Assembly: GCA_033763315.1 (NCBI GenBank)
Contig: JANRKS010000011.1
Coordinates: 188,493 to 252,492, forward strand
DNA from: Deltaproteobacteria bacterium
GTDB taxonomy: Bacteria; Myxococcota_A; Polyangia; Fen-1088
Reading direction: 5' to 3'
DNA length: 64,000 nucleotides
How positions within the stretch are numbered: position 1 is the first letter of the stretch; every line of letters begins with the position of its first letter. Under the pieces are notes generated by a model, which had not been told where the DNA came from, ran no database searches, and worked only from the letters and a program-made list of their open reading frames with translations. Positions 3,492 through 64,000 of this stretch are shown here, one piece after another. A program made the position numbers and the translations under genes.

Positions 3492-3633
3492 GGGGCGGCT
3501 TTGCCTATAGCGCGCCAACATCCTGTAAATGTGACGTTTCGGCGCCTGGCAAGAAGCGTTTTGTTCGCCGTCTCGTGACATTGGGGGACCGTGCCGTGGG
3601 GTATACGGCTGTCCCAACCACACCAAGCATCAC

Positions 3634-11090: not shown

Positions 11091-11130
11091 TTGACGGGGA
11101 CGGCAGGTTTGCTAATCGTATATCTACGAT
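11091..11130 (+). promoter_or_regulatory. arsR promoter with palindromic ArsR operator
   Basis: TTGACG at 11091; perfect inverted repeat ATCGTA-TATC-TACGAT (11115..11130) overlapping the start codon. Confidence 0.6.
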
Positions 11131-11470: not shown

Positions 11471-11474
11471 ACAC

Positions 11475-12563
11475 ATGAACTCAAACGCCGGCCTTCTCAA
11501 AAAACTTTCGTTTCTTGATCGCTACCTAACGCTGTGGATCTTCCTTGCCATGGGGATTGGTGTGGCGCTGGGCTTCCTCGCGCCAGGCTTCACCCGCGCA
11601 CTGAACAGCATGAGCGTGGGAACCACTTCGATTCCAATCGCCATTGGCCTGGTTTTGATGATGTACCCGCCGCTTGCCAAGGTACGGTACGAAGAGCTGG
11701 GGAAGGTGTTTCGCAACAAACGCGTGTTGACCCTTTCTTTGGTCCAGAACTGGGTTATGGGCCCACTTCTGATGTTCGGCCTTGCGGTGATCTTTCTGCG
11801 CGACAAGCCCGAATACATGCTTGGCCTGATTTTGATCGGGCTGGCCCGCTGCATAGCGATGGTCATCGTCTGGAATGACTTGGCCAAGGGCGATACCGAA
11901 TACTGCGCGGGGCTGGTTGCCTTCAACTCGATCTTTCAGGTTCTCTTCTTTTCCGTGTACGCGTACTTCTTCGCGACGTTGTTACCCACATGGCTCGGCC
12001 TGCAAAGCGCGGTGGTAAACATCAGCATTTCAGAAATAGCAAAAAGCGTCGCCATCTATTTGGGTTTGCCGTTTGCCTTGGGCTTCTTGACGCGCAGGGT
12101 GCTTGTGCGGCTGAAAAGTCGCGAATGGTACGAAAAAAGTTTCATTCCGCGCATCAGCCCCATGACGCTGGCGTCGCTGCTGTTTACCATCGTCGTCATG
12201 TTTTCCCTCAAGGGCGAAACGATTGTGCAGCTTCCTTTCGATGTACTTCGCATAGCTGTGCCGTTGTTCATCTACTTCGTCGTGATGTTCGCAGTCTCGT
12301 TCTTCATGAGCCGCCGCGTAGGCGCTGACTACAAGCAAACGGTCACGCTTTCGTTCACTGCCGCGTCCAACAACTTCGAGCTAGCCATCGCCGTGGCGAT
12401 CGCCAGCTTCGGAATTCACAGCGGCGCGGCGTTCGCGGCCGTCATCGGCCCACTCGTCGAAGTGCCGGTGCTCATTGGCCTGGTGAATGTCGCCCTCTGG
12501 GCGCAGAAGCGCTACTTCCCCAAAGCGACCATCGCGGCGCCTGCGTGCCCGCTGCCAGGATAG
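11475..12563 (+). CDS. acr3: ACR3-family arsenite efflux transporter
   Basis: [48 protein letters not shown]. Confidence 0.95.
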
Positions 12564-21663: not shown

Positions 21664-21749
21664 TGGTCTTGTTACACGTCCGTCAAAAAGCGGGAGCGGA
21701 ACCGTAACATCGCAGCGGACACACTCCGGCTATAACGGCGTCGTTCTTG

Positions 21750-22805
21750 ATGTCACACACACAATCAGTCTCACCGCTCGCCTTCTTGCCTCCCGTCACC
21801 ACGGCCTTCGATCTCAAGCGATCGGCTGTGGTACAGAAGCTGCCTCGCCCCGCTTCGCTTCGGTCGTCACGCCGGGATGCGACCACGTGTGGAACCGATG
21901 GGCGATCAGCCCAGATCCGCGAGGTCACCGACCTTATAGGCCGGCTTGCCAATGCCGAAGTCACAGTGGCAATCTTGGGCGAAACGGGGAGCGGCAAAGA
22001 TGTGGTGGCGCGAGCCCTTCACGAAGGCAGCCACCGATCCGCTAAGCCATTTGTGGTGTTCGACTGCGGCGCCGTACCGGCAAACCTGGTGGAAAGTGAG
22101 CTCTATGGCCACGAACGAGGCGCCTTTACGGGCGCGCATAGCGAACACCAAGGCGCCTTCGAGCGCGCGCGCGGCGGAACACTTTTTCTCGACGAAATCG
22201 GTGAGCTTCCCTTAGAGCTGCAACCGAGGTTGCTCCGCGTCTTGGATAACCGCCGCATTCGCCGCGTGGGCGGTTCGCGTGAACACAACGTAGAGGCCCG
22301 GGTTATCTGCGCGACAAACCGCAACCTGGCTCACCTGGTGGCGGCGAAGAAATTCCGCGAAGATCTATACTTTCGTCTCGCCGGCGCCGTGATCTCCGTG
22401 CCGCCGCTTCGCGAACGCAAGGAGGACTTGCCCCTGTTGATCCCCCGCCTGCTTGAGGAATTGGGTGGTGCGGATGTGCAGCTTTCTCCCGCGGCACTTG
22501 ATCTGCTGGCCGCCCATTCATGGCCCGGCAACGTGCGAGAGCTTCGCAATACGCTGGCCTGCGCCTTGGCTTTCATTGATGGCCACCGGCTTGAAGCTCA
22601 CCACATTCGGCTGATGGCTTCTACGTCGGAGCCGCCAAAGGCAGACGCGCTCCTGTTAGGCGGTCTAACGCTTGAGAGTCTCGAGCGCATGGCGATTGCA
22701 CAAACTTTGACTCAAAGCCGCGGCAACAAGCTGCACGCGGCGCGCGTGCTTGGAATTGCTCCGTCAACGCTTTACGAGAAGCTCAAACGCTACGGGATGT
22801 CTTGA
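21750..22805 (+). CDS. Second sigma54 enhancer-binding protein without sensory domain
   Basis: [57 protein letters not shown]; close paralog of 2520..3491. Confidence 0.9.
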
Positions 22806-29444: not shown

Positions 29445-30842
29445 TTAGATCGCGTGGGGTGTCAGCCGTTTGCGGCGCAGCTTCTCCACCAACGTCGTTC
29501 GGTTCAGCCCCAAAAGCTCGGCGGCTTTATTCTTGTTGCCGCCCGTGCGCTCAAGCGCTTCGGCGATCATGCGCTCTTCCACAGCCTCAAGAATGGTCTT
29601 CAGATCCGTGGCGCCTTCTTCGGGCAAACTTGGAATGGCGGCGTGGCCGTTGGTGGGCGTCACCAAGGTGGGCGTGCCCAAAGCGCGAATGTTCGACGGC
29701 AGGTCAGAAATGCCGATCTTGCCATTGCCCTTCATGATAACCAAGCGCTCGATGAGGTTCTCAAGCTCGCGGATGTTGCCGGGCCACGAGTGGCGCTTCA
29801 GCAAATCAAGCGCGGTGTTCTCCACCCCCAGCACTTGGCGGCGGTGGTGCTGGTTGGCGCGCTTCATGAAGTGCTCCACCAACAACGGTATGTCCGCGGG
29901 CCGCGAACGCAGCGCTGGCATCTCGATCGGAATGACATTCAAACGCCAATACAAATCAGAACGGAATCGACCGTGTTCCGCCTCAGAGCCCAGATCGCGG
30001 TTGGTGGCCGCGATCACGCGCACATCGATTTGCACGGGTGCCTCTTGGCCCACCGGGTAAAGCTCGCCCTCCTGGATCACGCGCAGCAGTTTTGCCTGCA
30101 CGCCCATCTCCATCTCGCCCACCTCGTCTAAGAAGATGGTGCCGCCATCGGCCTGGCCGAAGCGACCGGTGCGAGCCGCGTTGGCTCCGGTGAAGGCGCC
30201 TTTGGTGTGACCAAACAGTTCGCTTTCAACCAACGTTTCGGGAATCGCAGCACAGTTGACCGCCACAAACGGACTCTTGGAACGGGGCGAACCTGAAACG
30301 ATCGAGCGGGCCACAAGCTCTTTGCCAGTGCCTGATTCGCCCGTGATCAAAACGGTGCACGAGGTGTCAGCCACCTGGGCGATCATCGCCAACACGGGCA
30401 TGATGGCGGCGTCTTCGCCCAGTAACCAAGGTGCGTAACGATCTCGCCACGCCACGGGATCCAACGTTGGAGGAGGCGTTTTCTCAGAGAAGCCGAGGAC
30501 ATGTTCAAGCACTTCTTCAAGCGCTGGAAACTCGAACGGCTTGATCAAGAAGTCGCGTGCCCCCGCGCGCATAGCGCGAACCGCGTCCGGGATCTCGGCG
30601 CTGCCGCTCATGACGATCACCGGCGTCCCTGGCGTGTGGCGGCGAGCCGCTTCCAGAATTTCAAATCCGTTGACCTCGGGCATGCGAAGGTCCGTGACGA
30701 TTACGTCGAACTGTCCCGAGGCAATGTGGTCGAGGCCGCGCGGTCCGTCGGCCGTCACCACGTCGAACGATAAAGTGCGCAGCAGACGGGCTAAACCCCG
30801 GCACAGCGAATCTTCATCGTCGCAAAGCAAAAGTTTTCTCAC
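29445..30842 (-). CDS. NtrC-family sigma54 response regulator (REC-AAA-HTH)
   Basis: AGGAG before GTG 30842; LLCDDE, TDLRMP, GESGTGKE, GAFTGA, LGLNRTTLVEKL. Confidence 0.92.
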   Translation of the reverse strand: MRKLLLCDDEDSLCRGLARLLRTLSFDVVTADGPRGLDHIASGQFDVIVTDLRMPEVNGFEILEAARRHTPGTPVIVMSGSAEIPDAVRAMRAGARDFLIKPFEFPALEEVLEHVLGFSEKTPPPTLDPVAWRDRYAPWLLGEDAAIMPVLAMIAQVADTSCTVLITGESGTGKELVARSIVSGSPRSKSPFVAVNCAAIPETLVESELFGHTKGAFTGANAARTGRFGQADGGTIFLDEVGEMEMGVQAKLLRVIQEGELYPVGQEAPVQIDVRVIAATNRDLGSEAEHGRFRSDLYWRLNVIPIEMPALRSRPADIPLLVEHFMKRANQHHRRQVLGVENTALDLLKRHSWPGNIRELENLIERLVIMKGNGKIGISDLPSNIRALGTPTLVTPTNGHAAIPSLPEEGATDLKTILEAVEERMIAEALERTGGNKNKAAELLGLNRTTLVEKLRRKRLTPHAI

Positions 30843-31131
30843 CAGGGCTCCTGCGAGGGGAAGGATGGTGTAGGCAATGAGGTGACTAAGTCCGCGAAAT
30901 TTCGACGAAAGTCGGAAGCCAAGCCTTGTCATTGTGGCATAGCACCAGATTTTTGGTCAAGTAAGACTGTAAGGCGGCCGATGATTTGCGGGTTTCGCGC
31001 AAGCTTTGCGCGCTGCAGGGGCATGCAACGAGCCCAGCCGTTAGGGGAAGGGCCAAAAAGGAGGCTCTACTGCGGTCGGTTTTGCTGTCGTTTTGGCCGC
31101 GCGTTGCGGATTTGCTGAATACACTTGGCGC

Positions 31132-41337: not shown

Positions 41338-42219
41338 ATGATTACACGATGGGTATCGGGATTCCTGGTTGGTGGGGCGCTCCTTGCTGCAGCCTGCGGT
41401 GAGGACGACGACTTGCTTGGCAGCAATGATGGTGGCAATGCATCCGGCCTGGTCGACGGTGCACCTGCCTCCGATGTGGCGCAGTTCGATGTGGCGCCGT
41501 TGGATGCTGGCGCCATCGACGCACCTGCCATTGATGCTGCTCTTGACGGCAGCGGCGTGGACGGGGCGCGCGACGCGGGCTTTGAGGCGGGACCACTGAA
41601 CTTGCAACAGGGGTGGGCGCTACACAACTGGCGTCTGACGGACGACAACACGGGCCTCGCCAAGTATACGTTTCAAGAGGGCGGCTTGGTGGCGATTCAA
41701 ACCGCCAATCCCGATCCTTCGGCGTATTACAATCTGCAAACGCTGTCGAACGTCGTCGTTCGCGGGAGGTTCAGCATTCAAACAACCTCCGATGATGACT
41801 TCGTTGGTTTCGTGTTCGGTTGGCAAGATCCGCAACACTTCTACTTCTTCGACTGGAAGCAGGCCACGCAGCCCTATGCCACTTGTGGCACAGCGTCCGT
41901 GGGGGCATCGCTCAAAGTCATGAACAGCGATTCGCCAGCCAGTTTGTGTGGCGACTTCTGGAACTCCGCCGGCAGCGACCGAACCAAGATCTTGGCGAGC
42001 CGCACGCTTAACCCTGTGGGCTGGAAAGACAACGGCGTTTACGACTTCACCCTTGTTTTCAAGCCGGGCGACATCTCAATTGAAGTGCGCGAAGGCGCCA
42101 ACGTGGTGGTGAACATCAAATCGAACGACTCCACGTTCGTGGACGGCAAGTTTGGTTTTTACAACTACTCACAACAGTCTGTTCGCTACGAGGGCTTCGA
42201 CGTCAACCCTGCGCCCTAG
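41338..42219 (+). CDS. Lipoprotein with thrombospondin C-terminal (TSP_C)-like lectin domain
   Basis: Lipobox AAAC; Q.AN.DP, DDDFVGFVFGWQD..HFY..WKQ, GKFGFYNYSQ. Confidence 0.72.
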   Translation: MITRWVSGFLVGGALLAAACGEDDDLLGSNDGGNASGLVDGAPASDVAQFDVAPLDAGAIDAPAIDAALDGSGVDGARDAGFEAGPLNLQQGWALHNWRLTDDNTGLAKYTFQEGGLVAIQTANPDPSAYYNLQTLSNVVVRGRFSIQTTSDDDFVGFVFGWQDPQHFYFFDWKQATQPYATCGTASVGASLKVMNSDSPASLCGDFWNSAGSDRTKILASRTLNPVGWKDNGVYDFTLVFKPGDISIEVREGANVVVNIKSNDSTFVDGKFGFYNYSQQSVRYEGFDVNPAP

Positions 42220-50967: not shown

Positions 50968-52137
50968 CTAGCGCGAGGCCGTCTTGGCCGGCTCGTCGAC
51001 CAACTCACCCACGTAGGCGCGCAGACGGGTTTCGGTGGCACCCGGCAGATAGTATTTCCAGGTGCGTTTCACGCGCCCCTGGCGATCGAGCAACACAAAG
51101 GATGGCAAGCCGCTGATCTTGTATTTCGCGTAGGCGACAGACTCTTCTTCATCTGCTGGGTCATGGAGCACCGTTACTGACTGCGGCGTCTTATCGAGAT
51201 ATTTGTTCAACTCATCCGCCGCGGCCATGGTGCTCACCGCCACCACCTCAAGGCCTTTGTCTTTGAGATCGTCTTGCAATTGGTTCACGTAAGGCGAGGC
51301 CAGCAAGCACGTGGGGCACCAGGGGGCCCAAAACTCAAGCAACACCACTTTGCCCCTGTAGTGCGCGAGGCTCACGGTCTTGCCGGTGGGCGTTTGCAAT
51401 GAAAACATGGGCGCGGGCTTGCCTTGGGGCACGCGCGGATACTCGGGCTCCTGCCGTCGTTGCGGCAACCCCGCGGGTGGCCGCGACGCAAACACCGCGG
51501 CGTCAGGCGCGCCCAGGGTCACGGCAAAGGTCATCGTGATCTGCACTTGGCCATCATCGGCGAATAGGCGGCGAGGCAAATGCGTTTTGCCGTCGAACCA
51601 GACCTTGATCTTTATCGCTGTGGCCGTCTTTTGCGTGCGGCCAGACAACGCTGCGAGTTGCGTTCCGTCCAGTTTTTCAGACGTCGCCTTCAGATCCAGG
51701 AGTCGTTCAACAAAGGCTGTGGACGTAAACAAAGTGAGCGGCCAGTACGCCTTCTCGGCCCACTCGAGGTCAGGCGACACATAGGCCAGCGTGCGCGGGG
51801 CTTCGGTTTGCATCCAGAACTTGCTGTTCCATAGCCACTGCTTTTTTCCATCAGATACGATCGTCTCGATGGTTTTGTCTGCGCGTTTGACTTCCAACTT
51901 GTAGGCGTGAGGCGGCAGCAGAGAAAGTTGTGCATGCTCGGGTGGCGGCGAACGATGGGGACCGGGCGGGGGCTCGCCCACCGCCGACCGCGAGGCCACA
52001 ACGGACATTGGTCGCGCCTCCGCTATCGCGCGCTGGTATTCCGCGATGATAGACGCCGTTGCAGGTTCAATGGCCGCCGCCGTTGTTGCGGCCAACACCC
52101 CCGCCGCCAATGCCACCACGAACGCGCGCTTTTTCAC
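50968..52137 (-). CDS. Exported TlpA/redoxin with LolA-like N-terminal domain
   Basis: Signal peptide from GTG 52137; IVSDGKKQWLW; GKVVLLEFWAPWCPTC. Confidence 0.78.
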   Translation of the reverse strand: MKKRAFVVALAAGVLAATTAAAIEPATASIIAEYQRAIAEARPMSVVASRSAVGEPPPGPHRSPPPEHAQLSLLPPHAYKLEVKRADKTIETIVSDGKKQWLWNSKFWMQTEAPRTLAYVSPDLEWAEKAYWPLTLFTSTAFVERLLDLKATSEKLDGTQLAALSGRTQKTATAIKIKVWFDGKTHLPRRLFADDGQVQITMTFAVTLGAPDAAVFASRPPAGLPQRRQEPEYPRVPQGKPAPMFSLQTPTGKTVSLAHYRGKVVLLEFWAPWCPTCLLASPYVNQLQDDLKDKGLEVVAVSTMAAADELNKYLDKTPQSVTVLHDPADEEESVAYAKYKISGLPSFVLLDRQGRVKRTWKYYLPGATETRLRAYVGELVDEPAKTASR

Positions 52138-52243
52138 GCGGCCCACGATATCTGCAGGCGCCCCGCGGGCCCACGCAAAGCACAGGGTTGAAAACGCTTT
52201 CAGCTGAGCATGCGAGGCCTTTAGGCTAGGGCTTGAAGAACGT

Positions 52244-53218
52244 ATGGACGTCATCCTCGTCGCCGAGAAAATGGCCGGCTCTGCTTTGGCGGCGCTGCAA
52301 CGGCGCTACCGCGTTGTTCACGTGCCCGACTTATGGAAAGATCCCTCGGCGCTATGCCAGCAGCTGAAAAACGCTGATGCCTTGCTGGTGCGCAACCAAA
52401 CTCAAGTTGATGCTCACGTGCTTTCGTACGCGCCTTCACTGCGCATCATCGGGCGCGCGGGTGTGGGCCTCGACAACATTGACCTGCCAGCCGCCACGGC
52501 GGCGGGGGTCGTGGTGTCGTACTCGCCTGGCGCCAACGCCAACGCTGTGGCCGAGTTGACGTTGGGTTGCATTCTCGCGTTGTCGCGCCACCTCGTGGCC
52601 GCACATCAGCATGTGAGCCAGGGCGGATGGAGCCGCCTCGATTACCTTGGTCAGGAGATTGCGGGGCGCACGCTTGCTGTGATTGGCTGTGGCGCCACTG
52701 GCAGACTGACGGCGGCGAAGGCAAGCGCGCTTGGCATGAAGGTGCGCGGCTTCGACCCGTTCATGAAGCCCGATGATCCAGCCTTGGCGGCGGTGGGGCT
52801 CCAACTGGGGGCGCTTGACGAGGTGGTGGCGGAGGCTGATTTTGTGTCGTGCCATGTGCCCGGCAGCCGCGAAACACTGCATATGTTCGACGCCGCTCGC
52901 TTGGCGCGCATGCGGCGCGGTGCCTATTTCATCAACACTTCGCGTGGCAACGTCGTGGACGAAGCGGCACTTTGCGAGGCCTTGGCCAGCGGACACGTGG
53001 CAGGGGCGGCGCTGGACGTGCGTGCCGTTGAACCGCCGGGGGTGGGCAGCCTGGAGAGCTTGCCGAACGTTATTTTAACGCCGCACATTGGTGGGCTGAC
53101 CCACGAAGCGCAAGACGCTGTGTTGAACATGATTTGCCGCGACGTGGACGCGGTGCTTGCGGGCGAAGCGGCCCTTCACTTTGCGAACTTCGCCACGCCA
53201 CGCCGAGTGGGAGCATGA
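52244..53218 (+). CDS. D-isomer-specific 2-hydroxyacid dehydrogenase, possibly sulfolactate dehydrogenase (SlcC-like)
   Basis: LLVRNQTQVD, GRAGVGLDNID, GCGATG, INTSRG, TPHIGG. Confidence 0.8.
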   Translation: MDVILVAEKMAGSALAALQRRYRVVHVPDLWKDPSALCQQLKNADALLVRNQTQVDAHVLSYAPSLRIIGRAGVGLDNIDLPAATAAGVVVSYSPGANANAVAELTLGCILALSRHLVAAHQHVSQGGWSRLDYLGQEIAGRTLAVIGCGATGRLTAAKASALGMKVRGFDPFMKPDDPALAAVGLQLGALDEVVAEADFVSCHVPGSRETLHMFDAARLARMRRGAYFINTSRGNVVDEAALCEALASGHVAGAALDVRAVEPPGVGSLESLPNVILTPHIGGLTHEAQDAVLNMICRDVDAVLAGEAALHFANFATPRRVGA

Positions 53219-54519
53219 GTCAGCTTCACCTCGACCGTTATGGCCTGGCTTTCACAACGCCTTCGCTCGCGGCCGCGGGGGCGTACCTTGACGGTGTGGA
53301 CAGGCTGTTGGCGGCCGATGATGGTGCTGGCCAGGCCATGCAAACGGCCATCGATTTTGATCCGGGCTTCGCGCTCGCTCAGATTGGCTTGGCACGCGCT
53401 CATCAGATCGGTGGCAACGGTGCCGCCGCGAAAGCGGCCGTGGCCGCGGCTGTGCCTTTGTGTGAGGCCCTGCCGTCGCGTGAGCGCGGGCACGTACAAA
53501 CGCTGGCGGCGGTGGTGCTGGGACAGCCTGAAGCTTTGGCGTTGGTCAAACGACACATCGGAGACTATCCCAAGGACGCCTTGGTGTTAGCTCCCGGCGT
53601 GGCGGTGTTTGGTTTGATTGGCTTTTCGGGGCGGCAGGATCGCAACCAAGAGACGTTGGCTTGGATGCAGTCGCTGGCCTCGCATTATGCGAACGATTGG
53701 TGGTTTGGCGCGTGGTTTGGCTTTCTGCATACGGAGACAGGCCGCTTCGCCGAAGGCCGCGCCATCGTTGAACGCGCGTTTGCGAACAACCCACGCAATG
53801 CCAATGCCGCGCACGCGCTTGCCCACGTGTGTTACGAAGCGGGCGGCGCGCAAGCAGGGCGTGATTTCTTGGCCGCTTGGTTGCCCCGGTATTCCACGGG
53901 TGCGCCGTTGCATTGCCATCTTTCGTGGCATCAAGCTTTGTTTGAGTTTGAGCTGGGCCAATCAGAACGTGCGTGGCAGCTTTTTGGCCGTGCGGTGCGC
54001 CCGAGCGTGGCCGTGCAGGCGCCGCCCATCAACGCGCTCACAGATGCGGCGTCGCTGTTGTGGCGTGCGACGCTGCTTGGTCAACAAGCGCCCTTAGACG
54101 TATGGCAGGAAACCTCAGGGTTTGCGCACACGCACTTTCCGCAAGGCGGCGCCGACTTCGTTGATGCGCACGCCGCGATGGCTGCTGTGGGGGCCCGCGA
54201 TGGCGAGGCTCTGCAGAAAATCACAAGCCGCTTGCAAACAACCAAGGCGCGGTCGGGTGATTTGCTTTTGCAATTGACCCAGGCGCTCTGCGCTTATGGC
54301 CGCGCAGAGTGGCAGCACGTCATCGAACTTCTTGAGCCCTATGCCGACGAACTGATTCGCGTGGGTGGCAGCGGCGCCCAGCGTGACGTGTTCGAGCACA
54401 CGCTGTTGTCGGCGTACATCCGCGATGGGCGCGCGAACGACGCGCGTGCGTGGCTGCGCAGCCGGCCAACACGGCCCCGTAACACCGACGATCACGTGAT
54501 CAAACGTTTGGGCGGGTAG
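53215..54519 (+). CDS. TPR protein (TTC38-like)
   Basis: ATGA overlap with upstream stop; HALAHVCYE, HLSWH, DAASLLWR, GGSGAQRDVFE. Confidence 0.78.
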   Translation: MSQLHLDRYGLAFTTPSLAAAGAYLDGVDRLLAADDGAGQAMQTAIDFDPGFALAQIGLARAHQIGGNGAAAKAAVAAAVPLCEALPSRERGHVQTLAAVVLGQPEALALVKRHIGDYPKDALVLAPGVAVFGLIGFSGRQDRNQETLAWMQSLASHYANDWWFGAWFGFLHTETGRFAEGRAIVERAFANNPRNANAAHALAHVCYEAGGAQAGRDFLAAWLPRYSTGAPLHCHLSWHQALFEFELGQSERAWQLFGRAVRPSVAVQAPPINALTDAASLLWRATLLGQQAPLDVWQETSGFAHTHFPQGGADFVDAHAAMAAVGARDGEALQKITSRLQTTKARSGDLLLQLTQALCAYGRAEWQHVIELLEPYADELIRVGGSGAQRDVFEHTLLSAYIRDGRANDARAWLRSRPTRPRNTDDHVIKRLGG

Positions 54520-54547
54520 GGCGCCATCGCCGTCCGCCTCCGGCGCT

Positions 54548-56011
54548 TTACCCCACGCCCAAGCTGACGTGTTTCGTTTCCAAAAACGCGTCCAACCCCT
54601 CACTGCCAAGCTCCCGGCCCCAACCGCTTTGTTTTACGCCGCCAAATGGCGCTTGGCTGGTGGCGGGCACGCCGTCATTGATGGCAATGGTGCCGGCCTC
54701 CAGTGATTCGGCCAACCGGAACGTACGCGCCATGTCGCGCGTGAAAGCGTACGCCGCTAAGCCGTAGCTTGAGTCATTGGCGCGCGAGATGGCTTCGGCC
54801 TCGTTATCGAAGACACAAAGCGGGGCGACGGGCGCGAACGTTTCTTCGTTCATGCACAAACTTTGCGGGTCCACATTGGTGAGCATGGTGGGCGCAAAGA
54901 AGTTTCCCGGGCGATCCAGGCGCTTGCCGCCCAGCACCACCTGCGCGCCGCGGGCAACGGCATCGGCGATGTGTCGCTCGGCTTTGGCAACCGCGGAGGC
55001 ATCAATCAAGGGGCCCACATCAACGTTCGGCTCGTGACTTTCGCCCACTTTCAACGCGCGCACTTTTTCCTCAAAGCGGCTTAGAAAAGCGGACCAAATG
55101 CCGCTTTGAACGAAAATACGGTTGGCGGCTGTGCACGCTTGCCCAGCGTTGCGAAACTTCGCAAACATCACCCCCTCGACGGCCTTATCCAGATCGGCAT
55201 CGTCGAACACCAGCACCGGCGCGTGGCCGCCCAACTCAAGCGACAAGGGCTTTATGTGCGCCGCCGCTTGTTGAATCAGAATGCGGCCCACAGCCGTAGA
55301 CCCCGTGAACGAGACCTTGCGGCACAGCGGGTTCTCCATCATCTCCGTGCCCAAAGCCGCGGCATCGCCTAGCACCACGCTGAACAGACCGGGCGGAAAA
55401 CCCACGTCCTGTGTGATTCGCGCCAGCGCCAAGCACACGAGCGGCGTTTGCGGCGCGGGCTTCGCCACAACCGTGCAACCGGCGGCCCACGCCGCCGCCG
55501 CTTTGCGCAGCACCAACACCAGCGGAAAATTCCATGGGCAGATGATGCCCACGGGACCCACGGGCGATTTGACGCTGAGGTGGCGCTTGCCAGGCACTTG
55601 GTGGGGGATCACCTTTCCATAAGCGCGTTTGCCTTCTTCGGCGAACCAACGCAGGTGATCGCTCGACATCGCCACTTCGCCTTTGCTTTGCAAGAGGGGC
55701 TTGCCATTCTCGGTGCTGATCAAACTGGCGAGCGCGTCGGCTTCACGATCGATGGCGTCGGCCAAGCGCACCAGCAAGGCGGCGCGATCGCGGGCGGGCC
55801 GCACGCGCCAAGCTTCGAAAGCTTTGTGAGCCGCCACAAACGCCGCAGCCGCATGATGGCGATCACACGTGGCCACGTGGGCAAACACCTGATTGGTGGC
55901 GGGGTTGCGCACAGGAATGGCCGTGGGCGTCGCCACCCACTGGCCATCCACAAACAAGCTGTAAACGGGGCCTGAGGGGGACTCTGTGAGTGGGCTCAAC
56001 GGTGTCATCAC
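54548..56011 (-). CDS. GabD-type aldehyde dehydrogenase, possibly sulfolactaldehyde dehydrogenase
   Basis: ENGKP, PWNFP, SFTGST.VG, LELGG, FRNAGQAC, EETFAP, PFGGVKQSG. Confidence 0.88.
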   Translation of the reverse strand: MMTPLSPLTESPSGPVYSLFVDGQWVATPTAIPVRNPATNQVFAHVATCDRHHAAAAFVAAHKAFEAWRVRPARDRAALLVRLADAIDREADALASLISTENGKPLLQSKGEVAMSSDHLRWFAEEGKRAYGKVIPHQVPGKRHLSVKSPVGPVGIICPWNFPLVLVLRKAAAAWAAGCTVVAKPAPQTPLVCLALARITQDVGFPPGLFSVVLGDAAALGTEMMENPLCRKVSFTGSTAVGRILIQQAAAHIKPLSLELGGHAPVLVFDDADLDKAVEGVMFAKFRNAGQACTAANRIFVQSGIWSAFLSRFEEKVRALKVGESHEPNVDVGPLIDASAVAKAERHIADAVARGAQVVLGGKRLDRPGNFFAPTMLTNVDPQSLCMNEETFAPVAPLCVFDNEAEAISRANDSSYGLAAYAFTRDMARTFRLAESLEAGTIAINDGVPATSQAPFGGVKQSGWGRELGSEGLDAFLETKHVSLGVG

Positions 56012-56127
56012 GTGCTTCGTAACCTTCGCGGGTCCGGGTGCCTAGGAAATACAGTACTTGGAAAGCGGATTCAGACAAGCGATCCTTGTTGGGGCCGATC
56101 ATTCGCGAAATGCTGCCGTTGCAACAT

Positions 56128-56916
56128 ATGGACGTATCTCAGTGGGCCGTGGTGGCCTTCGCCTCGGTGCTTGGCAGCCTGGCCCAAGGCGCGACAGGTT
56201 TCGGGTCGGCCCTGGTGGCCATTCCGATCATGTTGTGGGGCAACCTGTCTTTGCCCGCGGCCATCGCCGTGAACACCGCCATCATCACCTTGCAAGGGGT
56301 GACCAGCTGTTGGCGCCACCGCGCCACGATTCCGTGGAAAGAAACCAACGCGATGGTGGGCCTGCGTTTGCTTTCCGTTCCGTTTGGCGTGTTGGCGTTG
56401 GCCGCGCTGCACGCCACAAGCCCCGCCACCGTGAAACAAGTGGTGGGTGCCACCTTGCTGGCGGTGCTGGCGTTCTTGATCACATTCAAGATTGAGCCGC
56501 GGCCGTCGGTGCGGCCGGCCTGGACTGCGGTGGCCGGCATTTCAAGTGGCTTTCTCACGGGCGCCGTGGGTATGGGTGGGCCGCCTCTGGTGACGTGGAC
56601 GTTGATGCACGATTGGGAACCTGCACGGGCGCGTGGCTTTCTGTGGGCCACGTCGCTGCAGATGATCCCGGTGTCTTTAGCGCTGCTCGTGTGGCAATTC
56701 GGGTTTGGCGTTCTGTGGTTTTTTGCATTGGGCCTCGTGGCGTTTCCGTTGGTGGTTGTGGGAAATCGTTGGGGGATGGGGTTGAGTGCCACCTGGAGCC
56801 GCCAATACATGCGTCGCGTGACTTATGCGCTCTTGGCCTTCACGGCCTTGCTCTGTATCAGCTCACCGTGGCTGCAGCGCTCGGCGCACACGCACACGGC
56901 CATGCTCGCTAAATAA
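56128..56916 (+). CDS. TauE/SafE sulfite/sulfonate exporter
   Basis: QGATGFGSAL, SGFLTGAVGMGGPPL; about 8 TM; start 56128 or 56110. Confidence 0.88.
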   Translation: MDVSQWAVVAFASVLGSLAQGATGFGSALVAIPIMLWGNLSLPAAIAVNTAIITLQGVTSCWRHRATIPWKETNAMVGLRLLSVPFGVLALAALHATSPATVKQVVGATLLAVLAFLITFKIEPRPSVRPAWTAVAGISSGFLTGAVGMGGPPLVTWTLMHDWEPARARGFLWATSLQMIPVSLALLVWQFGFGVLWFFALGLVAFPLVVVGNRWGMGLSATWSRQYMRRVTYALLAFTALLCISSPWLQRSAHTHTAMLAK

Positions 56917-56944
56917 CGACCCTGCTTGAAAGATCGATCTATCA

Positions 56945-58666
56945 ATGTCTGACAACAAAAAAGCCCTGCGCAGCGCTCGTTGGTTTGCGGATCCCGGTAT
57001 GCGCGGGTTTGCGCACCGCCAACGCCTGCAGCAAGTGGGCTTTCGGCGTGAAGAGTTCATGGGCAAGCCCGTGGTGGCCATCGTGAACACCTGGAGCGAA
57101 ATCTCGCCTTGCCATTTTCATTTGCGCGAGCGCGCGGAGGCTGTAAAGCGCGCCGTGTGGGCCGCGGGTGGTTTCCCTTTAGAGTTGCCGGCGCTGTCTT
57201 TGGGCGAGGTAATGGTGAAACCCACCACGATGATGTACCGGAACCTCCTGGCCCTCGAAGCGGAAGAGCTTCTGCGGTCTCATCCGGTGGATGGGGCCGT
57301 GTTGTTAGGCGGCTGTGACAAAACGGGTCCGGGATTGGTGATGGGCGCGCTGAGCATGAACCTGCCCGCGGTGTTTTGCCCGGCCGGCTTTATGGCCAGC
57401 GGTCAACACAAAGGCGAACGCGTGGGCGCGGGCACCCACACGCAAAAGTTCTGGGGCGAATACCGCGCCAACAAGATCGACGAAGCCGAGATGGTTCACC
57501 TTGAAACGGTGATGACCCGTTCGATCGGCACGTGCAACACGATGGGCACGGCGTCGACGATGACATCGCTTATCGACGCGATGGGCTTGTGCCTTCCGGC
57601 GGCGTCATCGATCCCCGCCATAGACGGTGGCCACACACGCATGGCGTCCGCGTGTGGCGAACTCATCGTCAGCATGATTCGCGAAGATCGAACGCCGCGG
57701 GCGCTGGTCACGCGTGGCTCGGTCAACAATGCGGCGGTGGCGTATCTGGCTTTGGGGGGCTCCACAAACGCCGCCATTCACTTGCTGGCCATCGCGAAGC
57801 GTGCCGGTGTTGATTTCACGCTGGCCGATCTCGACGCCCTGGCCAGGCGTGTGCCGGTGTTGGCCAATGTGTTTCCCGCGGGCCAATTTTTGATGGAGGA
57901 TTTCTTTTTTGCAGGCGGGTTGCGCGCGCTGCTGTCGCGCGTGCAAGATCATCTGGATCTTGATGCCCGCCTCGTCACTGGCCAAACGATGCGCGAAGCT
58001 TTGGAGGGCGCGCGTGTGCTCAACGATGAAGTGATTCGTCCGGTCACCCGGCCCGTGTCATCGCAACCGGGCTTGGCTGTGTTGCGAGGCAACCTGGCGC
58101 CCGAAGGCTGCGTGATCAAACCCACGGCCGCCACGCCCGCGCTGATGCACCACACGGGCCCGGCGCTGGTGTTTGATTCGATGGCAGAACTGGTGGCAGG
58201 CATCGACGACCCGGCGCTTGACGTGACACCTCAAACCGTTCTCGTGCTGCGCGGCGCAGGCCCGCAAGGCGCGCCGGGCATGCCAGAGTGGGGCGCACTG
58301 CCCATTCCGAAAAAGCTGCTGGCGCAAGGTGTGCGAGACATGGTGAGGCTTTCCGACGCGCGTATGAGTGGAACCCACGGTGGCACGTGCGTGTTGCACA
58401 TTTCACCGGAGTCAGCGGTGGGAGGCCCCTTGGCCTTGGTGCGCACGGGTGACATGATATCGCTTGATGTGTCCGAGCGGCGCTTGACCTTAAACGTCTC
58501 TGACGAAGAGCTGCGGCAACGCAAAGCCGCTTGGGTGCCTCCCACGGCGGCGTATGAGCGTGGCTACGGCGCGCTGTTTTTGCAGCACGTGCAGCAGGCG
58601 CACGAGGGCTGCGATTTCGATTTCTTGGCAAAGCACGCCCCCAACCCCGAACCCGAGATCTATTAG
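56945..58666 (+). CDS. IlvD/Edd-family sugar-acid dehydratase, probably 6-deoxy-6-sulfogluconate dehydratase
   Basis: GGCDKT, GTCNTMGTASTM, GGSTNA, GAPGMPE, SDARMSGT; specificity inferred from context and recalled motifs. Confidence 0.8.
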   Translation: MSDNKKALRSARWFADPGMRGFAHRQRLQQVGFRREEFMGKPVVAIVNTWSEISPCHFHLRERAEAVKRAVWAAGGFPLELPALSLGEVMVKPTTMMYRNLLALEAEELLRSHPVDGAVLLGGCDKTGPGLVMGALSMNLPAVFCPAGFMASGQHKGERVGAGTHTQKFWGEYRANKIDEAEMVHLETVMTRSIGTCNTMGTASTMTSLIDAMGLCLPAASSIPAIDGGHTRMASACGELIVSMIREDRTPRALVTRGSVNNAAVAYLALGGSTNAAIHLLAIAKRAGVDFTLADLDALARRVPVLANVFPAGQFLMEDFFFAGGLRALLSRVQDHLDLDARLVTGQTMREALEGARVLNDEVIRPVTRPVSSQPGLAVLRGNLAPEGCVIKPTAATPALMHHTGPALVFDSMAELVAGIDDPALDVTPQTVLVLRGAGPQGAPGMPEWGALPIPKKLLAQGVRDMVRLSDARMSGTHGGTCVLHISPESAVGGPLALVRTGDMISLDVSERRLTLNVSDEELRQRKAAWVPPTAAYERGYGALFLQHVQQAHEGCDFDFLAKHAPNPEPEIY

Positions 58667-58675
58667 GAGCGAATC

Positions 58676-59428
58676 GTGAATCCGTTTAAGCAAACTTTGG
58701 CGGCTGGCAAAAACTTGCGCGGCTTGTGGCTTGTGAGCGGCAGCCCCACCATCACAGAAGCGATGTCGTTGGCCGGTTGGGATTTTCTGGTGCTGGATCT
58801 CGAGCACGCTCCCGTTTCGGTATGGAATGTCACCGATCATCTGCGGGCGGCGCAGATGGGCAACACACCGCTGATCGTGCGTTTGCCCGATTCGAACGCG
58901 GGCTTCGTGAAGCAAGCGTTGGACGCTGGCGCACAAAACTTGATGTTCCCGTTCATTGAGAATGTTGAAGAGGCGCGACAAGCTGTGGCGCTGACACGCT
59001 ATGCCCCCGAAGGCGTGCGCGGCCTGGCGCGGATGATGCGCGCCAGCCGCTATGGCACCAACCGCGACTACGCCAAACAAGCAAACCAAGACATCACGCT
59101 CATCGCTCAGCTTGAGTCGCTGCAAGCTTTGTCGAAGCTCAAAGATGTGGCGTCGGTGCCAGGCGTGGACGCCTTGTTCATCGGCCCCGGTGATATCTCT
59201 GCCTCGCTTGGTTTGGCGGGTGAGGTTGAACATCCAGACGTCGCCGACACACTCGCACGCGGCTTTGGTGCGTGCCGCGCGCTGGGCAAACCCGTGGGCA
59301 CCATCTTGGGCACCGTGCCCGCCGTCAAGGCGGCGTTTGCGGCAGGATGCACGTTCGCCGCCGTTTCAAGCGATGTGGGCACGCTGATCGCGGCCTCACG
59401 TCAAGCGCAAGCGGCGCTGGCCGACTGA
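58676..59428 (+). CDS. HpcH/HpaI-family aldolase, probably 2-keto-3,6-dideoxy-6-sulfogluconate aldolase
   Basis: LDLEHAP, KQALDAGA, RYAPEGVRG, AQLES, FIGPGDISASLG. Confidence 0.82.
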   Translation: MNPFKQTLAAGKNLRGLWLVSGSPTITEAMSLAGWDFLVLDLEHAPVSVWNVTDHLRAAQMGNTPLIVRLPDSNAGFVKQALDAGAQNLMFPFIENVEEARQAVALTRYAPEGVRGLARMMRASRYGTNRDYAKQANQDITLIAQLESLQALSKLKDVASVPGVDALFIGPGDISASLGLAGEVEHPDVADTLARGFGACRALGKPVGTILGTVPAVKAAFAAGCTFAAVSSDVGTLIAASRQAQAALAD

Positions 59429-59516
59429 AGCGCCGACGGCCGCGCGCACGCAGGCCCCTAGGCATTTGCAATCGCTTTCATAAGCGTAGGAGAGGGCGGG
59501 TGTTTAGGCTGCGGGC

Positions 59517-60940
59517 GTGCAGGCTGGTTTGACGAGCAGCGCGTGGGTGCCAGCGGTGGTGGGCATCGCCTGCGTGATTGTTGGCATTGTTTGGTTGCGT
59601 TTAAGCGCGCTCTTTTCTTTGGCCGCGGGGGCTTTGGCCGTGGCGCTGTTGACGCCCGCGGCGGCGATCCGAGGCGCGCACTTGCAAACTGTGTCAGCGC
59701 CCACGCCCTTGCAGGTGGCACAAGCTGACCAAATGAAATGGCCGGCAAGCCGCCCGGGGAAAGGGTGAGCCTCGCGTTTGGGGCGGCGGCGGGGAAGGTG
59801 GGCCTGCTGATTCTCTTTGCGTGCGTGGTGGGCGAATGCCTGCGGGCCACAGGCGGTGCGCGTGCGATCGCCACCGCGGTGTTGCAACTGTTCGGGCCCC
59901 GGCAGGCGGCTGTGGGGCTCGCGACCGCAAGCTTCGTTCTGGCCGTGCCGGTGTTCTTCGACACCCTGTTTCTGCTGATGCTGCCCATCGCGCGTGCGCT
60001 GCGCTTACAGTCGGGGCGCGACTACCTTCTTTACATCCTGGCGATCGTGGCGGGCGGCACCATGGCCCACGCGTTGGTGCCACCCACGCCAGGGCCGCTG
60101 TTCGTGATTGAAGCCTTGGGCGTGGATCTCGTCACCATGATGATCGGCGGCAGCGTCACGGGCATTGTGGCCGCGGCGGCAGGCCTGCTGTACGCGCATC
60201 GCTTGAACAGCCACATGGTGATTCCGCTGCGCGATGAAGACGCAGCGGCGCCCGTGTTGGCCGCTCCCTCGGTTGGTGCTGCCTGGGCCTGCGTGCCGAT
60301 CGCGTTGCCGCTGCTGTTGATTAGTGGGGCCACCTTCGGGGCGCGCGGCGCGATCCCCTGGCCTGCGACGCGCGGCTTCTTTGCGATGATGGGTGAAAAG
60401 AATATGGCCATCGCCGTGGCAGCCGCGGTGGCTTTGGGCATTGCCGCGTGGAAGATGGAAGGGCGAGGCACGATCGCCGCCGTTCTTTCGCGTGCCTTGC
60501 AAACCGCCGCACCCATTGTCCTCATCATTTCAGCGGGTGGCGCGTTCGGAGAAATGCTGAGGCAAACAAACATCGCGGCCCTTTTCGTGGGCCACACGCA
60601 AACATCGTTTTGGTTGATTCCGCTGACAGCGCTGGTGGCGGCGGCTGTGCGAACGGCGCAAGGGTCCGTGACCGTAGCCATGATCACCACTGTGGGAATG
60701 GTGGCGGGGCTCGCCACAAGCGCCACCTTACCCTTTCACCCGGTTTACCTGGCGCTGGCCATCGGCTGCGGCGCAAAGAATTTCGCCTGGATGAATGACA
60801 GCGGTTTTTGGGTCATGGCACGCACGTCTGGCATGACCGAACGCGAAACCTTACGCACCATAAGCGTCATGAACCTCTATATGGCGGCCGCGGGGCTGGT
60901 GGTGGTGATGTTGGGCGCCTGGCTTCTGCCTATGCGGTGA
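59517..60940 (+). pseudogene. GntP-family sugar-acid permease, frameshifted by a 5-bp duplication
   Basis: ORFs 59517..59768 and 59738..60940 join in frame if one AAATG (59731..59740) is removed; PVFFDT, HALVPPTPGP, RTAQGS.TVA, WMNDSGFW. Confidence 0.8.
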
Positions 60941-61061
60941 ATTAGAAGATCGATGCCCGGGTGAACCGCGCGCTCGGCATGAGAACGGGCCCTTAGACCC
61001 TTCCAACGGTCAAGGCTTGGGACGCGCCTGCGATCGAAGCGTGGCGTTGCCATGGGCAGCG

Positions 61062-61513
61062 TTACTTTGTGGGTTGGCGTTTCGCTGGCTCGGAATCAGG
61101 CTGCAGTTCATATTTGCCCGGGCCTTTTAAAGCGATGATGAACCGCTGTGGCTTTGCATGGTCGCTAGACGAACCCTCCACAGTCAAAACGTTCGCGGCC
61201 TTGCCAAAGGTGATAGCGGGGGTACCGAGAGACCAAAGACCAGTAAGTTCTTTGACCTCGACTCCTGCAATAAACTCGAAAGCCTTTATCTCTTCATTCT
61301 CCACAAGCCATTCGATGAACAGCGTTGATCTAATGTGCTCCCAACCGCCGGACTCAATGACAACCCGGTAAAAACCGCTTCGACAGGAATTCGAGCCGCA
61401 GAAGATGCACGACGCGTTTCATCTACCGACCCTGCTTCGGCGAGAGACGGCGAATGTGTGCAGGCGTTAAAGACGAACGTCAAGAGGAAGAGGAACAGGG
61501 GCTTGCAGGTCAT
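61062..61513 (-). pseudogene. Frameshifted lipoprotein gene (orphan immunity-like)
   Basis: MTCKPLFLFLLTFVFNAC lipoprotein start in one frame; plausible continuation GFYRVVIESGGWEHIRSTLFIEWLVENE in another frame near 61375. Confidence 0.5.
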
Positions 61514-61670
61514 GGGTCTCCTCAACAATCACGTGTGAATCGGGGTACACAGGCTTTCCAATTGAGCGCAGGCACGTTGTTCGAGGGCGCTGCGGCCACG
61601 TTGTTTGAGGGGAGCGAACCAAACCCACGCTTCTGACATCAAGTTGCCCAGCCCTTAGGAGCAATAGCAT

Positions 61671-62404: not shown

Positions 62405-62968
62405 TCAGTGGCTTGTCAAAATCAACACCTCACCATCTCCTGAGGGCGGATTAGGCGCGAGATATCGAACAGAAGCACGCCGGTCTTTCGCATTGAACGC
62501 GATTAGTTCCGATGCGAAAAATGGTGGTTCCAACGCTGCTTCGTAGTCGCGGGCAGACGTGCGACCAATGCAGATTACCCAGTCCTTCCAATATACAGCC
62601 GACCAAATGTCGCGAACCAAGAGGCCGTTCGGCAAGGAGACGTGAAGTCCTTTGAAAAGTAGCTTTCCATCCTTTGTCGACAACATGTTCTCAGCGGCAT
62701 ATTTCTTCTTGGCTGTGCGAACCGCATCCCAGTCGATCGAAAATTGATGGCCATCAATCTCAAATCCACCGTTTTTGTTTGAGACAGCGTTCCGCTCCCT
62801 TAGTGCGTTGTTGTGGACGTCGATGACAAGGTAGCCACCTACAGAAGAAACGAAGAGCTTCTCGACTACCGGCGTGTTTCGTGCGCGCGGTGGGCGCGCT
62901 AGTACTGCGAAGCCCGCGCATACCGTCAACAGAAAGACGATCAAGCCAATCGTTCGCTTAGTCACCAC
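62405..62968 (-). CDS. Putative cognate immunity protein (exported)
   Basis: Start overlaps the Rhs stop; signal peptide KRTIGLIVFLLTVCAGFAVLA. Confidence 0.65.
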   Translation of the reverse strand: MVTKRTIGLIVFLLTVCAGFAVLARPPRARNTPVVEKLFVSSVGGYLVIDVHNNALRERNAVSNKNGGFEIDGHQFSIDWDAVRTAKKKYAAENMLSTKDGKLLFKGLHVSLPNGLLVRDIWSAVYWKDWVICIGRTSARDYEAALEPPFFASELIAFNAKDRRASVRYLAPNPPSGDGEVLILTSH

Positions 62969-64000
62969 CCCCGTACCTTTCCGTTTGTTTGAATGGTCGG
63001 CTTGATGCCGAGTTCAGCCGCGAACGCCTTCACCCAGGTGTTGGAATTCGGTCCGTTGTCGTAGTTGTAACGGCTGGATGAAAACTTGTAGTTCACGGCG
63101 GCTGCGGCGGACTCTAGTCGATACAGATCGACAGGGCCCTTTATATCGAACGTGCCGTATGTCGTTACGTCCAGATGCACTACCTCCTTACTGTTGTCCC
63201 AGTTAGCTCCTATGGCGTTAGAGAATGCCTCTCGAGCATTGTCCATTGGCAAAACACGGCCGTCCAAGTTCTTCCCAGACGGACCGCCTTGCGCCAAAAA
63301 TTCTCGGTGGCCACCTGATTGTTCCGTCGATATTACTACTCCTAGGTGCTGCTCAGCGCTTCGGTCCTTGCCGTGGCCCCCGGTGCTCCTTCCGACAATC
63401 GTGAGGGTTGCTTGCGGCTGTGTCTGTTGACTCTCGGCCTTGCTAAACGGCTTCCCCGCCTGTGACTGAGGTCCATCCCGTTCCCCATACCTCGGCGCAT
63501 CCGTAGCCGTCTGTCCATTGCTCGCCCCATTGTCCGCCAATAACCCGCTGTTGGTCGTGGCCGATCTTCCCGCAGTTGCGTTAGCGGTCTGTTGCTTCTG
63601 TGTGCCGCTGATCATGATGTCGCGGGAGGCTGAGCCCTGAGCCACGCGCTGGGCATGAGCGTTGACGATGGCCTTGGCGGCGCCCTCTGAGACGCCAGTT
63701 GACTTTACGGCTTGCACCAACTCGGTCTTCCTCTGCTCTTGCTTCTCTTCGGCCTCCTGCGCCTCCTCCATGGATTGCTTCATCATCTCGTTGAGCATCT
63801 CAAGCTGCATATCATCGACGGCCGAACCCACGCCTGATTCGGAACCACCACCGCCATTTCGGTCGGTGCCCATTTTCCGCATCATGTATTCAGACTCGGC
63901 CCTTCTTTGCGCGTCGTACACCGCATCGTAACCCGTTGGGTCTGTGTAACCCGTTGGGTTGCCAAGCACGTACATGTACCTGTTGTAGCTTTGGCCGAAG
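62962..64000 (-). CDS. Rhs-family polymorphic toxin, C-terminal part (5'-truncated by window edge)
   Basis: Frame open to window end; QSYNRYMYVLGNPTGYTDPTG core boundary motif followed by a ~320-aa variable region. Confidence 0.88.
   Translation of the reverse strand, partial: FGQSYNRYMYVLGNPTGYTDPTGYDAVYDAQRRAESEYMMRKMGTDRNGGGGSESGVGSAVDDMQLEMLNEMMKQSMEEAQEAEEKQEQRKTELVQAVKSTGVSEGAAKAIVNAHAQRVAQGSASRDIMISGTQKQQTANATAGRSATTNSGLLADNGASNGQTATDAPRYGERDGPQSQAGKPFSKAESQQTQPQATLTIVGRSTGGHGKDRSAEQHLGVVISTEQSGGHREFLAQGGPSGKNLDGRVLPMDNAREAFSNAIGANWDNSKEVVHLDVTTYGTFDIKGPVDLYRLESAAAAVNYKFSSSRYNYDNGPNSNTWVKAFAAELGIKPTIQTNGKVRGW

Follow-up and report, generated by a model that had tools for sequence, protein, structure and literature searches.

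Sulfoquinovose (SQ) is a plant sulfosugar whose turnover is usually two-tier, with C3 sulfonates excreted by primary degraders and mineralised by secondary degraders. The Entner-Doudoroff form of sulfoglycolysis (the sulfo-ED pathway) is said to have been described originally in Pseudomonas putida SQ1, by Felux et al. in 2015. A recent review places the pathway mainly in soil Proteobacteria (PMC12890257; this and the other papers named here are cited for excerpts of their text). The sulfogluconate (SG) dehydratase of the pathway belongs to PF00920, and the aldolase that cleaves 2-keto-3,6-dideoxy-6-sulfogluconate (KDSG) belongs to PF03328 (PMC12421959, PMC9594981). For Rhizobium leguminosarum SRDI565, a preprint proposes WP_017967307.1 as the SG dehydratase and WP_017967308.1 as the KDSG aldolase. 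Here we analysed a 64-kb window (the whole stretch of DNA under study, taken from the 252-kb contig JANRKS010000011.1), to which our searches for upper-pathway genes also applied. Its positions 52244-60940 carry a cluster of genes that we read, with a probability of about 0.6, as the self-contained lower half of a sulfo-ED route in a Polyangia-type myxobacterium.

Phylogeny and signature residues of the dehydratase

The most informative gene of the module is an IlvD/Edd sugar-acid dehydratase (56945-58666, + strand, 573 aa; PF00920 and PF24877); the other genes are weaker evidence. The protein is 62% identical to WP_017967307.1, the proposed Rhizobium SG dehydratase. A tblastn search of PLSDB with it returned 701 records, the best of which (62-65% identity) lie inside complete sulfo-ED clusters containing an ABC importer, dehydratase, aldolase, SMP-30 lactonase, short-chain dehydrogenase/reductase (SDR), alpha-glucosidase, TauE and a protein resembling succinate-semialdehyde dehydrogenase (SSADH). 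The match in Rhizobium sp. WSM4643 (L001, 12001-13746, on a plasmid) is WP_017967307.1 itself, adjoining WP_017967308.1.

A scan of genome contigs (genome_contigs) returned 80 loci, which were screened with the Rhizobium sulfo-ED proteins. We scored a sulfo-ED context wherever an SQ-dehydrogenase-like SDR (at least 50% identity) or a GH31 protein (at least 50%) lay nearby, as it did for 40 of 83 dehydratase rows. A quick maximum-likelihood tree of 84 rows placed all 40 context rows and the window protein in one 58-row clade (SH-aLRT, the Shimodaira-Hasegawa-like approximate likelihood ratio test, 97). L027, which has an internal stop, was excluded, and for L037 no single match spanned the full length. 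A more careful tree was built from 42 rows chosen by hand, leaving out the other 42; it recovered the SG-dehydratase clade including the window protein at 100/100 support. Within it, the window enzyme paired (100/100) with its nearest relative (78% identity), from locus L023 of a metagenome-assembled genome (MAG) labelled Deltaproteobacteria, and next with the enzymes of L033 and L048, both Hyphomicrobiales MAGs (96/92). Because the betaproteobacterial sulfo-ED group is the sister of this subclade (93/90), the window enzyme sits nested amid enzymes whose context is canonical.

RlArDHT and PuDHT, which are absent from the trees, were compared on a single scale of phmmer bits. Searched with the window dehydratase, the Rhizobium SG dehydratase scored 817 bits, 21 of the 23 outgroup rows 709-805 (the other two being L056 at 619 and L080 at 610), PuDHT (8EJ0) 587 and RlArDHT (5J83) 572. 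L078 was considered as an RlArDHT orthologue for the tree and rejected (604 bits).

Signature residues were defined as those found in at least 90% of the 40 context enzymes and at most 10% of the 23 outgroup enzymes, and the window protein carries the clade residue at all 16 such positions. In an HMMER alignment, A23, Q26 and R27 stand opposite Tyr, Gly and Trp of RlArDHT, and the positions of A23, Q26 and Q29 fall in the 'substrate recognition helix' (PMC5770437, PMC11316719). Immediately after the catalytic Ser475-Gly-Thr comes H478; RlArDHT and PuDHT carry Ala at this position (the SGTA hotspot of the same two papers). The C-terminal residue is Tyr573; the C-terminus is aromatic in 40 of 40 context enzymes (Tyr in 22, Phe in 18) and is His in 14 of 23 outgroup enzymes, a residue that PMC11316719 calls fully conserved among sugar-acid dehydratases. 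The catalytic set is intact relative to RlArDHT, comprising Ser475, Cys56/124/197 ([2Fe-2S]), Asp125-Lys126, Glu88 and Glu448 (roles after PMC5770437 and PMC11316719), with the catalytic Ser marked in the alignment by the S480A mutant chain of RlArDHT.

An earlier reading made from the letters alone (hereafter the first-pass annotation) had preferred an SG over an arabinonate dehydratase because of four motifs, which we found at residues 23, 87, 161 and 474. Clade-specific residues do occur in three of these (AHRQRLQQ, GAGTHT and MSGTH); the fourth, GEVMVKPTTM, is not discriminating. The preference itself is borne out by the 62% identity, the clade, the 16 residues and the 817 versus 572 bits, and the comparison by BLAST and phylogeny that the annotation had proposed, run with the Rhizobium sulfo-ED proteins, leads to the SG-dehydratase clade. 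Judged from its sequence, the enzyme belongs to that clade of sulfo-ED clusters and not to the characterised L-arabinonate dehydratase.

The dehydratase could nonetheless serve an ordinary non-phosphorylative route, in which gluconate or a pentonate taken up by the GntP permease would yield pyruvate and glyceraldehyde or glycolaldehyde, processed by both dehydrogenases of the locus, with TauE incidental. GntP family members are typically gluconate carriers (NCBIfam), PuDHT, among the two best PDB matches, prefers D-gluconate (PMC11316719), and neither the aldolase nor the aldehyde dehydrogenase is of a specifically sulfo type. The window dehydratase also scores 886.6 against the NCBIfam model NF009559, 'L-arabinonate dehydratase' (cut-off 882). 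It comes out just above the cut-off because this name is over-broad: the Rhizobium SG dehydratase bears it too (WP_017967307.1 is 'araD, L-arabinonate dehydratase' in PGAP/RefSeq), and NF009559 does not separate L-arabinonate from SG dehydratases. Given the 100/100 nesting in the sulfo-ED clade, a protein without the C-terminal His or the Tyr/Gly/Trp recognition-helix residues of RlArDHT, a TauE kept immediately upstream in L023, and no KdaD-type dehydratase, alpha-ketoglutaric semialdehyde (KGSA) dehydrogenase or glycerate kinase nearby, we consider this route distinctly improbable.

Other members of the clade occur in varied surroundings. Plasmid pTPRO1 of Salipiger profundus (L084, 7968-14904) carries an SG-clade dehydratase together with an HpcH aldolase and an enzyme of the enolase family beside the acid transporter TctABC, an arrangement that may be a second architecture entering at the sugar-acid level. 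In a Rhodospirillales MAG (L024, 3212-18836), a basal clade dehydratase lies amid four to five sulfatases, two enolase-family enzymes, TctABC and a SuyB/altronate-dehydratase-like gene, a neighbourhood that suggests sulfated rather than sulfonated sugar acids.

Such loci bear on whether the substrate might instead be another anionic sugar acid, either sulfogalactonate (from sulfofucose) or an O-sulfated hexonate, whose 3-sulfated glycerate would suit the SerA-like dehydrogenase. The window subclade lacks canonical SQ context, L024 with its sulfatases and enolase-family enzymes sits at the base of the clade, and in L048 and L084 the dehydratase is accompanied by enzymes of the enolase family (MR_MLE), to which the sulfogalactonate dehydratase SfcF also belongs (PMC12421959). 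The 2-hydroxyacid dehydrogenase of the window is, moreover, nearest to phosphoglycerate dehydrogenase models. Against this stand a window with neither a sulfatase nor an enolase-family gene, 16 of 16 signature residues as in the SQ-cluster enzymes, and a TauE and GabD-type dehydrogenase, the standard partners of sulfolactaldehyde metabolism. We hold such a substrate to be quite unlikely.

Partner genes and conserved gene order

All six families that the first-pass annotation had named together were found by Pfam within 52244-60940, with a seventh (TPR) gene additionally present. Upstream, the module is bordered by a thioredoxin-like gene and a Dam methylase (Pfam). The first gene encodes a SerA/SlcC-like D-2-hydroxyacid dehydrogenase (52244-53218, + strand, 324 aa; PF02826 and PF00389), a candidate (S)-sulfolactate dehydrogenase. 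It is followed by a TPR-repeat protein probably outside the pathway (53134-54519, + strand, real start likely near 53212; TPR_19, E=1.2e-7), whose GC content at third codon positions (GC3, 0.68) is coding-like. Next come a GabD-type aldehyde dehydrogenase, the candidate sulfolactaldehyde dehydrogenase (54548-56011, - strand; PF00171, E=2.3e-164), and a TauE/SafE (TSUP) membrane protein, the putative sulfonate or sulfite exporter (56038-56916, + strand, probable start ~56128; PF01925, E=9.5e-21). The dehydratase, an HpcH/HpaI class II aldolase proposed to act on KDSG (58676-59428, + strand, 250 aa; PF03328, E=1.7e-40) and GntP complete the order. TauE, dehydratase and aldolase share one strand and are separated by gaps of 9-28 bp. 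A promoter and terminator scan of 52000-61600 gave 0 promoters (1.5 expected) and 18 terminators (13.6 expected), counts on the level of shuffled sequence, and is uninformative on operon structure; Rfam gave no match anywhere in the window.

The arrangement recurs in L023, which reads 2-hydroxyacid dehydrogenase (+), aldehyde dehydrogenase (-), TauE (+), dehydratase (+) and the start of the aldolase (+), where the contig stops. Its homologues are 63%, 73%, 71% and 78% identical for the first four genes, respectively, the TauE proteins aligning from residue 31 of the window protein on, and TauE stands immediately upstream of the dehydratase in both. No TPR gene lies between the corresponding two genes of L023. 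A five-gene core is thus conserved in two genomes at 63-78% protein identity, which is more than chance and implies long-lasting purifying selection.

This conservation bears directly on the idea that a complete sulfo-ED locus was once acquired horizontally and that what is left of it here is decaying and no longer functional. A frameshifted GntP, missing upper genes, an aldolase on a long branch and the TPR gene inserted relative to L023 would all fit decay. Five full-length open reading frames (ORFs) with intact catalytic residues and normal codon-position GC do not, nor does the same five-gene arrangement in L023, nor a 98% identical 2-hydroxyacid dehydrogenase that occurs in another sample. 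A remnant is, in our view, highly improbable.

The host fits the 'probable myxobacterium' of the first-pass annotation. All five organism-named matches of the citrate synthase are Polyangia or Polyangiaceae (69-73% identity), which, together with the nearest dehydratase lying in a Deltaproteobacteria MAG, makes that assignment reasonable. Window GC is ~0.60, and the window encodes several sigma-54 activators as well as TPR and PilZ proteins. Three sigma-54 enhancer-binding proteins lie at 2520-3626 (-), 21747-22805 (+) and 29445-30932 (-), and L023 has a further sigma-54 activator, with an FHA domain, upstream of its module.

The aldolase is 42-48% identical to aldolases beside SG-type dehydratases, 40% to E. 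coli GarL and 37% to RhmA. It falls within a clade (support 95) that excludes GarL, RhmA and L087, on a long unresolved branch, and it has two of six group signature residues, counted against an outgroup of only six rows, three of them on long branches. The His/Arg/Glu/Asp positions that we take, by presumed GarL numbering, to be catalytic are kept. The aldehyde dehydrogenase is 49.6% identical to the Rhizobium sulfo-ED enzyme and 47.9% to E. coli GabD, which are 62% identical to each other. It scores 566 bits with the SSADH model TIGR01780, under the cut-off of 646, and its PDB matches are 3jz4 (GabD, 486 bits) and 8c54 (471 bits); a tree of 13 rows does not split sulfolactaldehyde from succinate-semialdehyde enzymes. 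The lower sulfo-ED module proposed in the first-pass annotation is accordingly upheld for the dehydratase, which is placed in the SG clade; for the aldolase, aldehyde dehydrogenase and TauE the placement goes no further than the family.

The 2-hydroxyacid dehydrogenase appears SlcC-like. Its best NCBIfam model is the phosphoglycerate dehydrogenase TIGR01327 (302 bits, under the cut-off of 454), and it is 49% identical to P0198, named (S)-sulfolactate dehydrogenase, from Ca. Sulfotelmatomonas. SlcC itself belongs to the SerA group of D-2-hydroxyacid dehydrogenases (PMC6303947), in agreement with the family given in the first-pass annotation. According to excerpts of its paper, the acidobacterial genome SbA5 (Ca. 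Sulfotelmatomonas, with an annotated slcC) also encodes suyAB and comC. Homologues of the window enzyme (41-44% identity) occur in 11 of the 40 loci with sulfo-ED context. A ComC-like Ldh_2 adjoins the homologue in all three annotated loci (L011, L017 and L018), and one of the three, L011, has a SuyB-like gene as well. The pairing of an aldehyde dehydrogenase with an SlcC-like dehydrogenase is thus also found in sulfo-ED loci with ComC-like and SuyB-like genes. In L011 (4921-9598), a full sulfo-ED cluster stands head-to-head with aldehyde dehydrogenase, SlcC-like, ComC-like and SuyB-like genes, fusing sulfoglycolysis to sulfolactate mineralisation.

Every substrate is our inference from what is observed: the gene families, the synteny with L023, and the dehydratase's clade placement and signature residues. 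The dehydratase would act on a 6-sulfonated hexonate, most likely 6-deoxy-6-sulfo-D-gluconate, giving a 2-keto-3-deoxy acid and water. The aldolase would cleave this 2-keto-3-deoxy sulfonated acid to pyruvate and sulfolactaldehyde, and the GabD-type dehydrogenase would convert sulfolactaldehyde to sulfolactate. The SerA/SlcC-like dehydrogenase might take sulfolactate on to sulfopyruvate, and TauE would export a sulfonate or sulfite. Because the window holds no ComC-like Ldh_2, SuyAB-like genes or TPP (thiamine pyrophosphate) enzyme, the fate of sulfopyruvate is not encoded there.

The upper pathway and possible sources of sulfogluconate

We searched the window by tblastn (E<=1e-3) with seven proteins of the Rhizobium sulfo-ED cluster. 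Three of the seven found a match (dehydratase, aldolase and aldehyde dehydrogenase); Rhizobium TauE had no window match at this threshold. Neither this search nor Pfam detected in the window an SQ dehydrogenase (SDR, PF13561), a sulfogluconolactone lactonase (SMP-30, PF08450) or a sulfoquinovosidase (GH31 YihQ type, PF01055), nor did a Gfo/Idh/MocA-type protein turn up there as a candidate for the NAD-dependent family of sulfoquinovosidases. The Pfam scan took in 54 of the 55 longest non-overlapping ORFs of the window, among which it found no aldose epimerase, Ldh_2, SuyB-type, TPP or sulfatase domain. The absence of upper-pathway genes noted in the first-pass annotation is thus confirmed, for these 64 kb. 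In L023, the 10 kb upstream of the dehydratase hold neither a TPR gene nor an upper-pathway gene. Since the upper genes are missing from both stretches, the pathway is incomplete by the sulfo-ED cluster definition, three of whose seven features are missing from the window.

With only the second half of the pathway present, the organism may feed on a half-digested intermediate. If the module is indeed a lower sulfo-ED half, its sulfogluconate could be made from SQ by genes elsewhere, which is conceivable but doubtful, or imported, which is less likely still; the rest of our expectation is undecided.

The proposed supply route for import is the GntP permease, whose gene follows that of the aldolase on the same strand at a distance of 88 bp. 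Its main ORF (59738-60940, + strand, 400 aa; PF02447, E=2.6e-60) matches profile positions 53-436 of 440 and lacks about the first 50; its closest relatives have 452-484 aa and 75-84% identity. The missing start lies in another frame, as an N-terminal fragment of 83 codons covering the first two transmembrane helices (59517-59765, + strand). This fragment is 65% identical to residues 2-87 of P0002, an intact relative of 467 aa, and has a coding-like GC3 of 0.72; alone, it has no Pfam match at E<=10. The alignment to P0002 switches frame exactly at a 5-bp tandem duplication, AAATG AAATG (59731-59740, + strand), which we attribute either to a recent inactivating mutation or to an assembly error. 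We know of no GntP-family transporter that carries sulfonated acids.

A cross-feeder with no upper pathway at all could nevertheless live on sulfogluconate released by other bacteria and imported through GntP. An acid-sugar permease does adjoin the aldolase, no upper-pathway gene occurs in 64 kb, and the flanks are unrelated (the thioredoxin-like gene upstream, a putative Rhs toxin tail downstream). SG is known to leak: spent medium of the SQ degrader R. leguminosarum is reported to have contained 0.172 mM SG from 5 mM SQ. The Salipiger locus likewise has an SG-clade dehydratase, aldolase and TctABC with no SDR, lactonase or GH31 within ~8 kb. The permease gene is broken here, however, no GntP homologue was found near the dehydratase in the other 82 loci of the context screen (L023 ending before that position), and the absence of upper genes is judged on 64 kb of a 252-kb contig. 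We therefore rate such scavenging as unlikely. The uptake of sulfogluconate made by others, as put forward in the first-pass annotation, is an attractive idea that draws on the frameshifted GntP and on absence from the 64-kb window; with the gene split by the 5-bp duplication, it stays unproven.

Several observations count against a lower sulfo-ED module, whichever way it is supplied. SQ dehydrogenase, lactonase and sulfoquinovosidase are absent from the 64 kb and from L023's 10 kb upstream of its dehydratase, and the window has no ComC, SuyAB or Xsc for the use of sulfopyruvate. As a supply route GntP is broken, its helices split over two frames. The dehydratase passes the L-arabinonate model discussed above, its subclade (window, L023, L033 and L048) includes no locus with a canonical upper pathway, and the signature residues are in part another expression of clade membership. 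The clade also has members in other contexts, among sulfatases (L024), with an enolase-family enzyme and TctABC (L084) or among unrelated genes (L057), and the neighbourhoods of L024 and L057 mean that not every member need act on sulfogluconate. Among the partners, the aldolase is divergent and hardly nearer to sulfo-ED aldolases than to GarL, the aldehyde dehydrogenase is about as far from E. coli GabD as from the Rhizobium enzyme, and TauE is only ~26% identical to TauE/TSUP proteins of proteobacterial sulfo-ED clusters.

Downstream of the module lie low-GC ORFs, and GC falls to 0.56 across 62405-63999 (-). A 5'-open ORF at 62962-63999 (-) begins '...NRYMYVLGNPTGYTDPTGY', presumably the end of an RHS repeat core, with no Pfam or NCBIfam support, and continues for ~320 aa of unmatched sequence. 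The ORF at 62405-62968 (187 aa, with a hydrophobic N-terminus), likewise without Pfam or NCBIfam support, could be its cognate immunity protein. Elsewhere in the window, Pfam found a low-molecular-weight phosphatase (ArsC-like), an ArsR regulator and an SBF/ACR3-like carrier in a row at 10674-12563 (+), which looks like an arsenic resistance operon, and a thrombospondin C-terminal (TSP_C) domain at 41338-42219 (+; E=1e-24), unusual in a bacterium.

Comparison with known sulfosugar systems

The dehydratase shares its superfamily, [2Fe-2S] Cys, Mg ligands, carbamylated-Lys motif and catalytic Ser with RlArDHT (PDB 5J84) and promiscuous PuDHT (8EJ0), the pentonate/hexonate dehydratases of the Weimberg and Dahms routes. 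It differs from RlArDHT in having Ala/Gln/Arg rather than Tyr/Gly/Trp on the recognition helix and a C-terminal Tyr in place of the RlArDHT-type His that lines the neighbour's active site, and from both enzymes in its SGTH motif, where theirs is SGTA. Unlike those routes, it has no pentonate-pathway genes near it. Genome pipelines label SG dehydratases 'L-arabinonate dehydratase'; the helix pattern A-H-R-Q-R-x-Q-Q, together with SGTH and a C-terminal Tyr/Phe in place of His, would offer a testable SG-dehydratase signature for metagenomes.

On the side of sulfolactate, the likeness to SlcC of Chromohalobacter salexigens is one of SerA-group family, drawn from family membership and an annotated slcC rather than from the sequence of that enzyme. 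That system works with ComC and SuyAB, whereas no ComC partner adjoins the window gene. The pairing of an aldehyde dehydrogenase with a SerA-type dehydrogenase beside a dehydratase and aldolase is shared with the fused clusters L011, L017 and L018 and with the sulfofucose pathway of Paracoccus wurundjeri (SlcC/ComC-SuyAB; PMC12421959). Those systems differ from the window, which lacks a ComC-like Ldh_2, SuyAB-like genes and a TPP enzyme, and the Paracoccus dehydratase is of the enolase family, the window's of the IlvD type.

A lower sulfo-ED module standing on its own, accompanied by an acid-sugar permease, would suggest a third way into the SQ cycle, at the sugar-acid level. Sulfogluconate would then be a traded metabolite, and a Polyangia lineage keeping the dehydratase-aldolase half and the permease would live on SG leaked by primary SQ degraders or released by their lysis. 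We consider this rather unlikely. If true, such trade would add a new trophic link to the SQ cycle, in which SG has so far been treated as a purely intracellular intermediate.

The closest described system is the Rhizobium sulfo-ED cluster. For the last steps both draw on the same families: HpcH for the aldolase, the GabD type for the aldehyde dehydrogenase, TauE for the exporter and IlvD/Edd for the dehydratase, whose two representatives (62% identity) share clade and signature residues. The window differs in the 64-kb absence of SQ dehydrogenase, SGL lactonase, sulfoquinovosidase, mutarotase and SQ importer; a broken GntP acid-sugar permease stands where the sugar importer would be, an SlcC-like dehydrogenase is added, and the aldolase (42.5%) and TauE (~26%) are only distant relatives. 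A literature search pairing sulfoquinovose or sulfo-ED with Myxococcota or myxobacteria found no paper linking them. Unlike an alpha-, beta- or gammaproteobacterial host, the host here is a Polyangia-like myxobacterium, and the module would extend sulfo-ED enzymes to Myxococcota.

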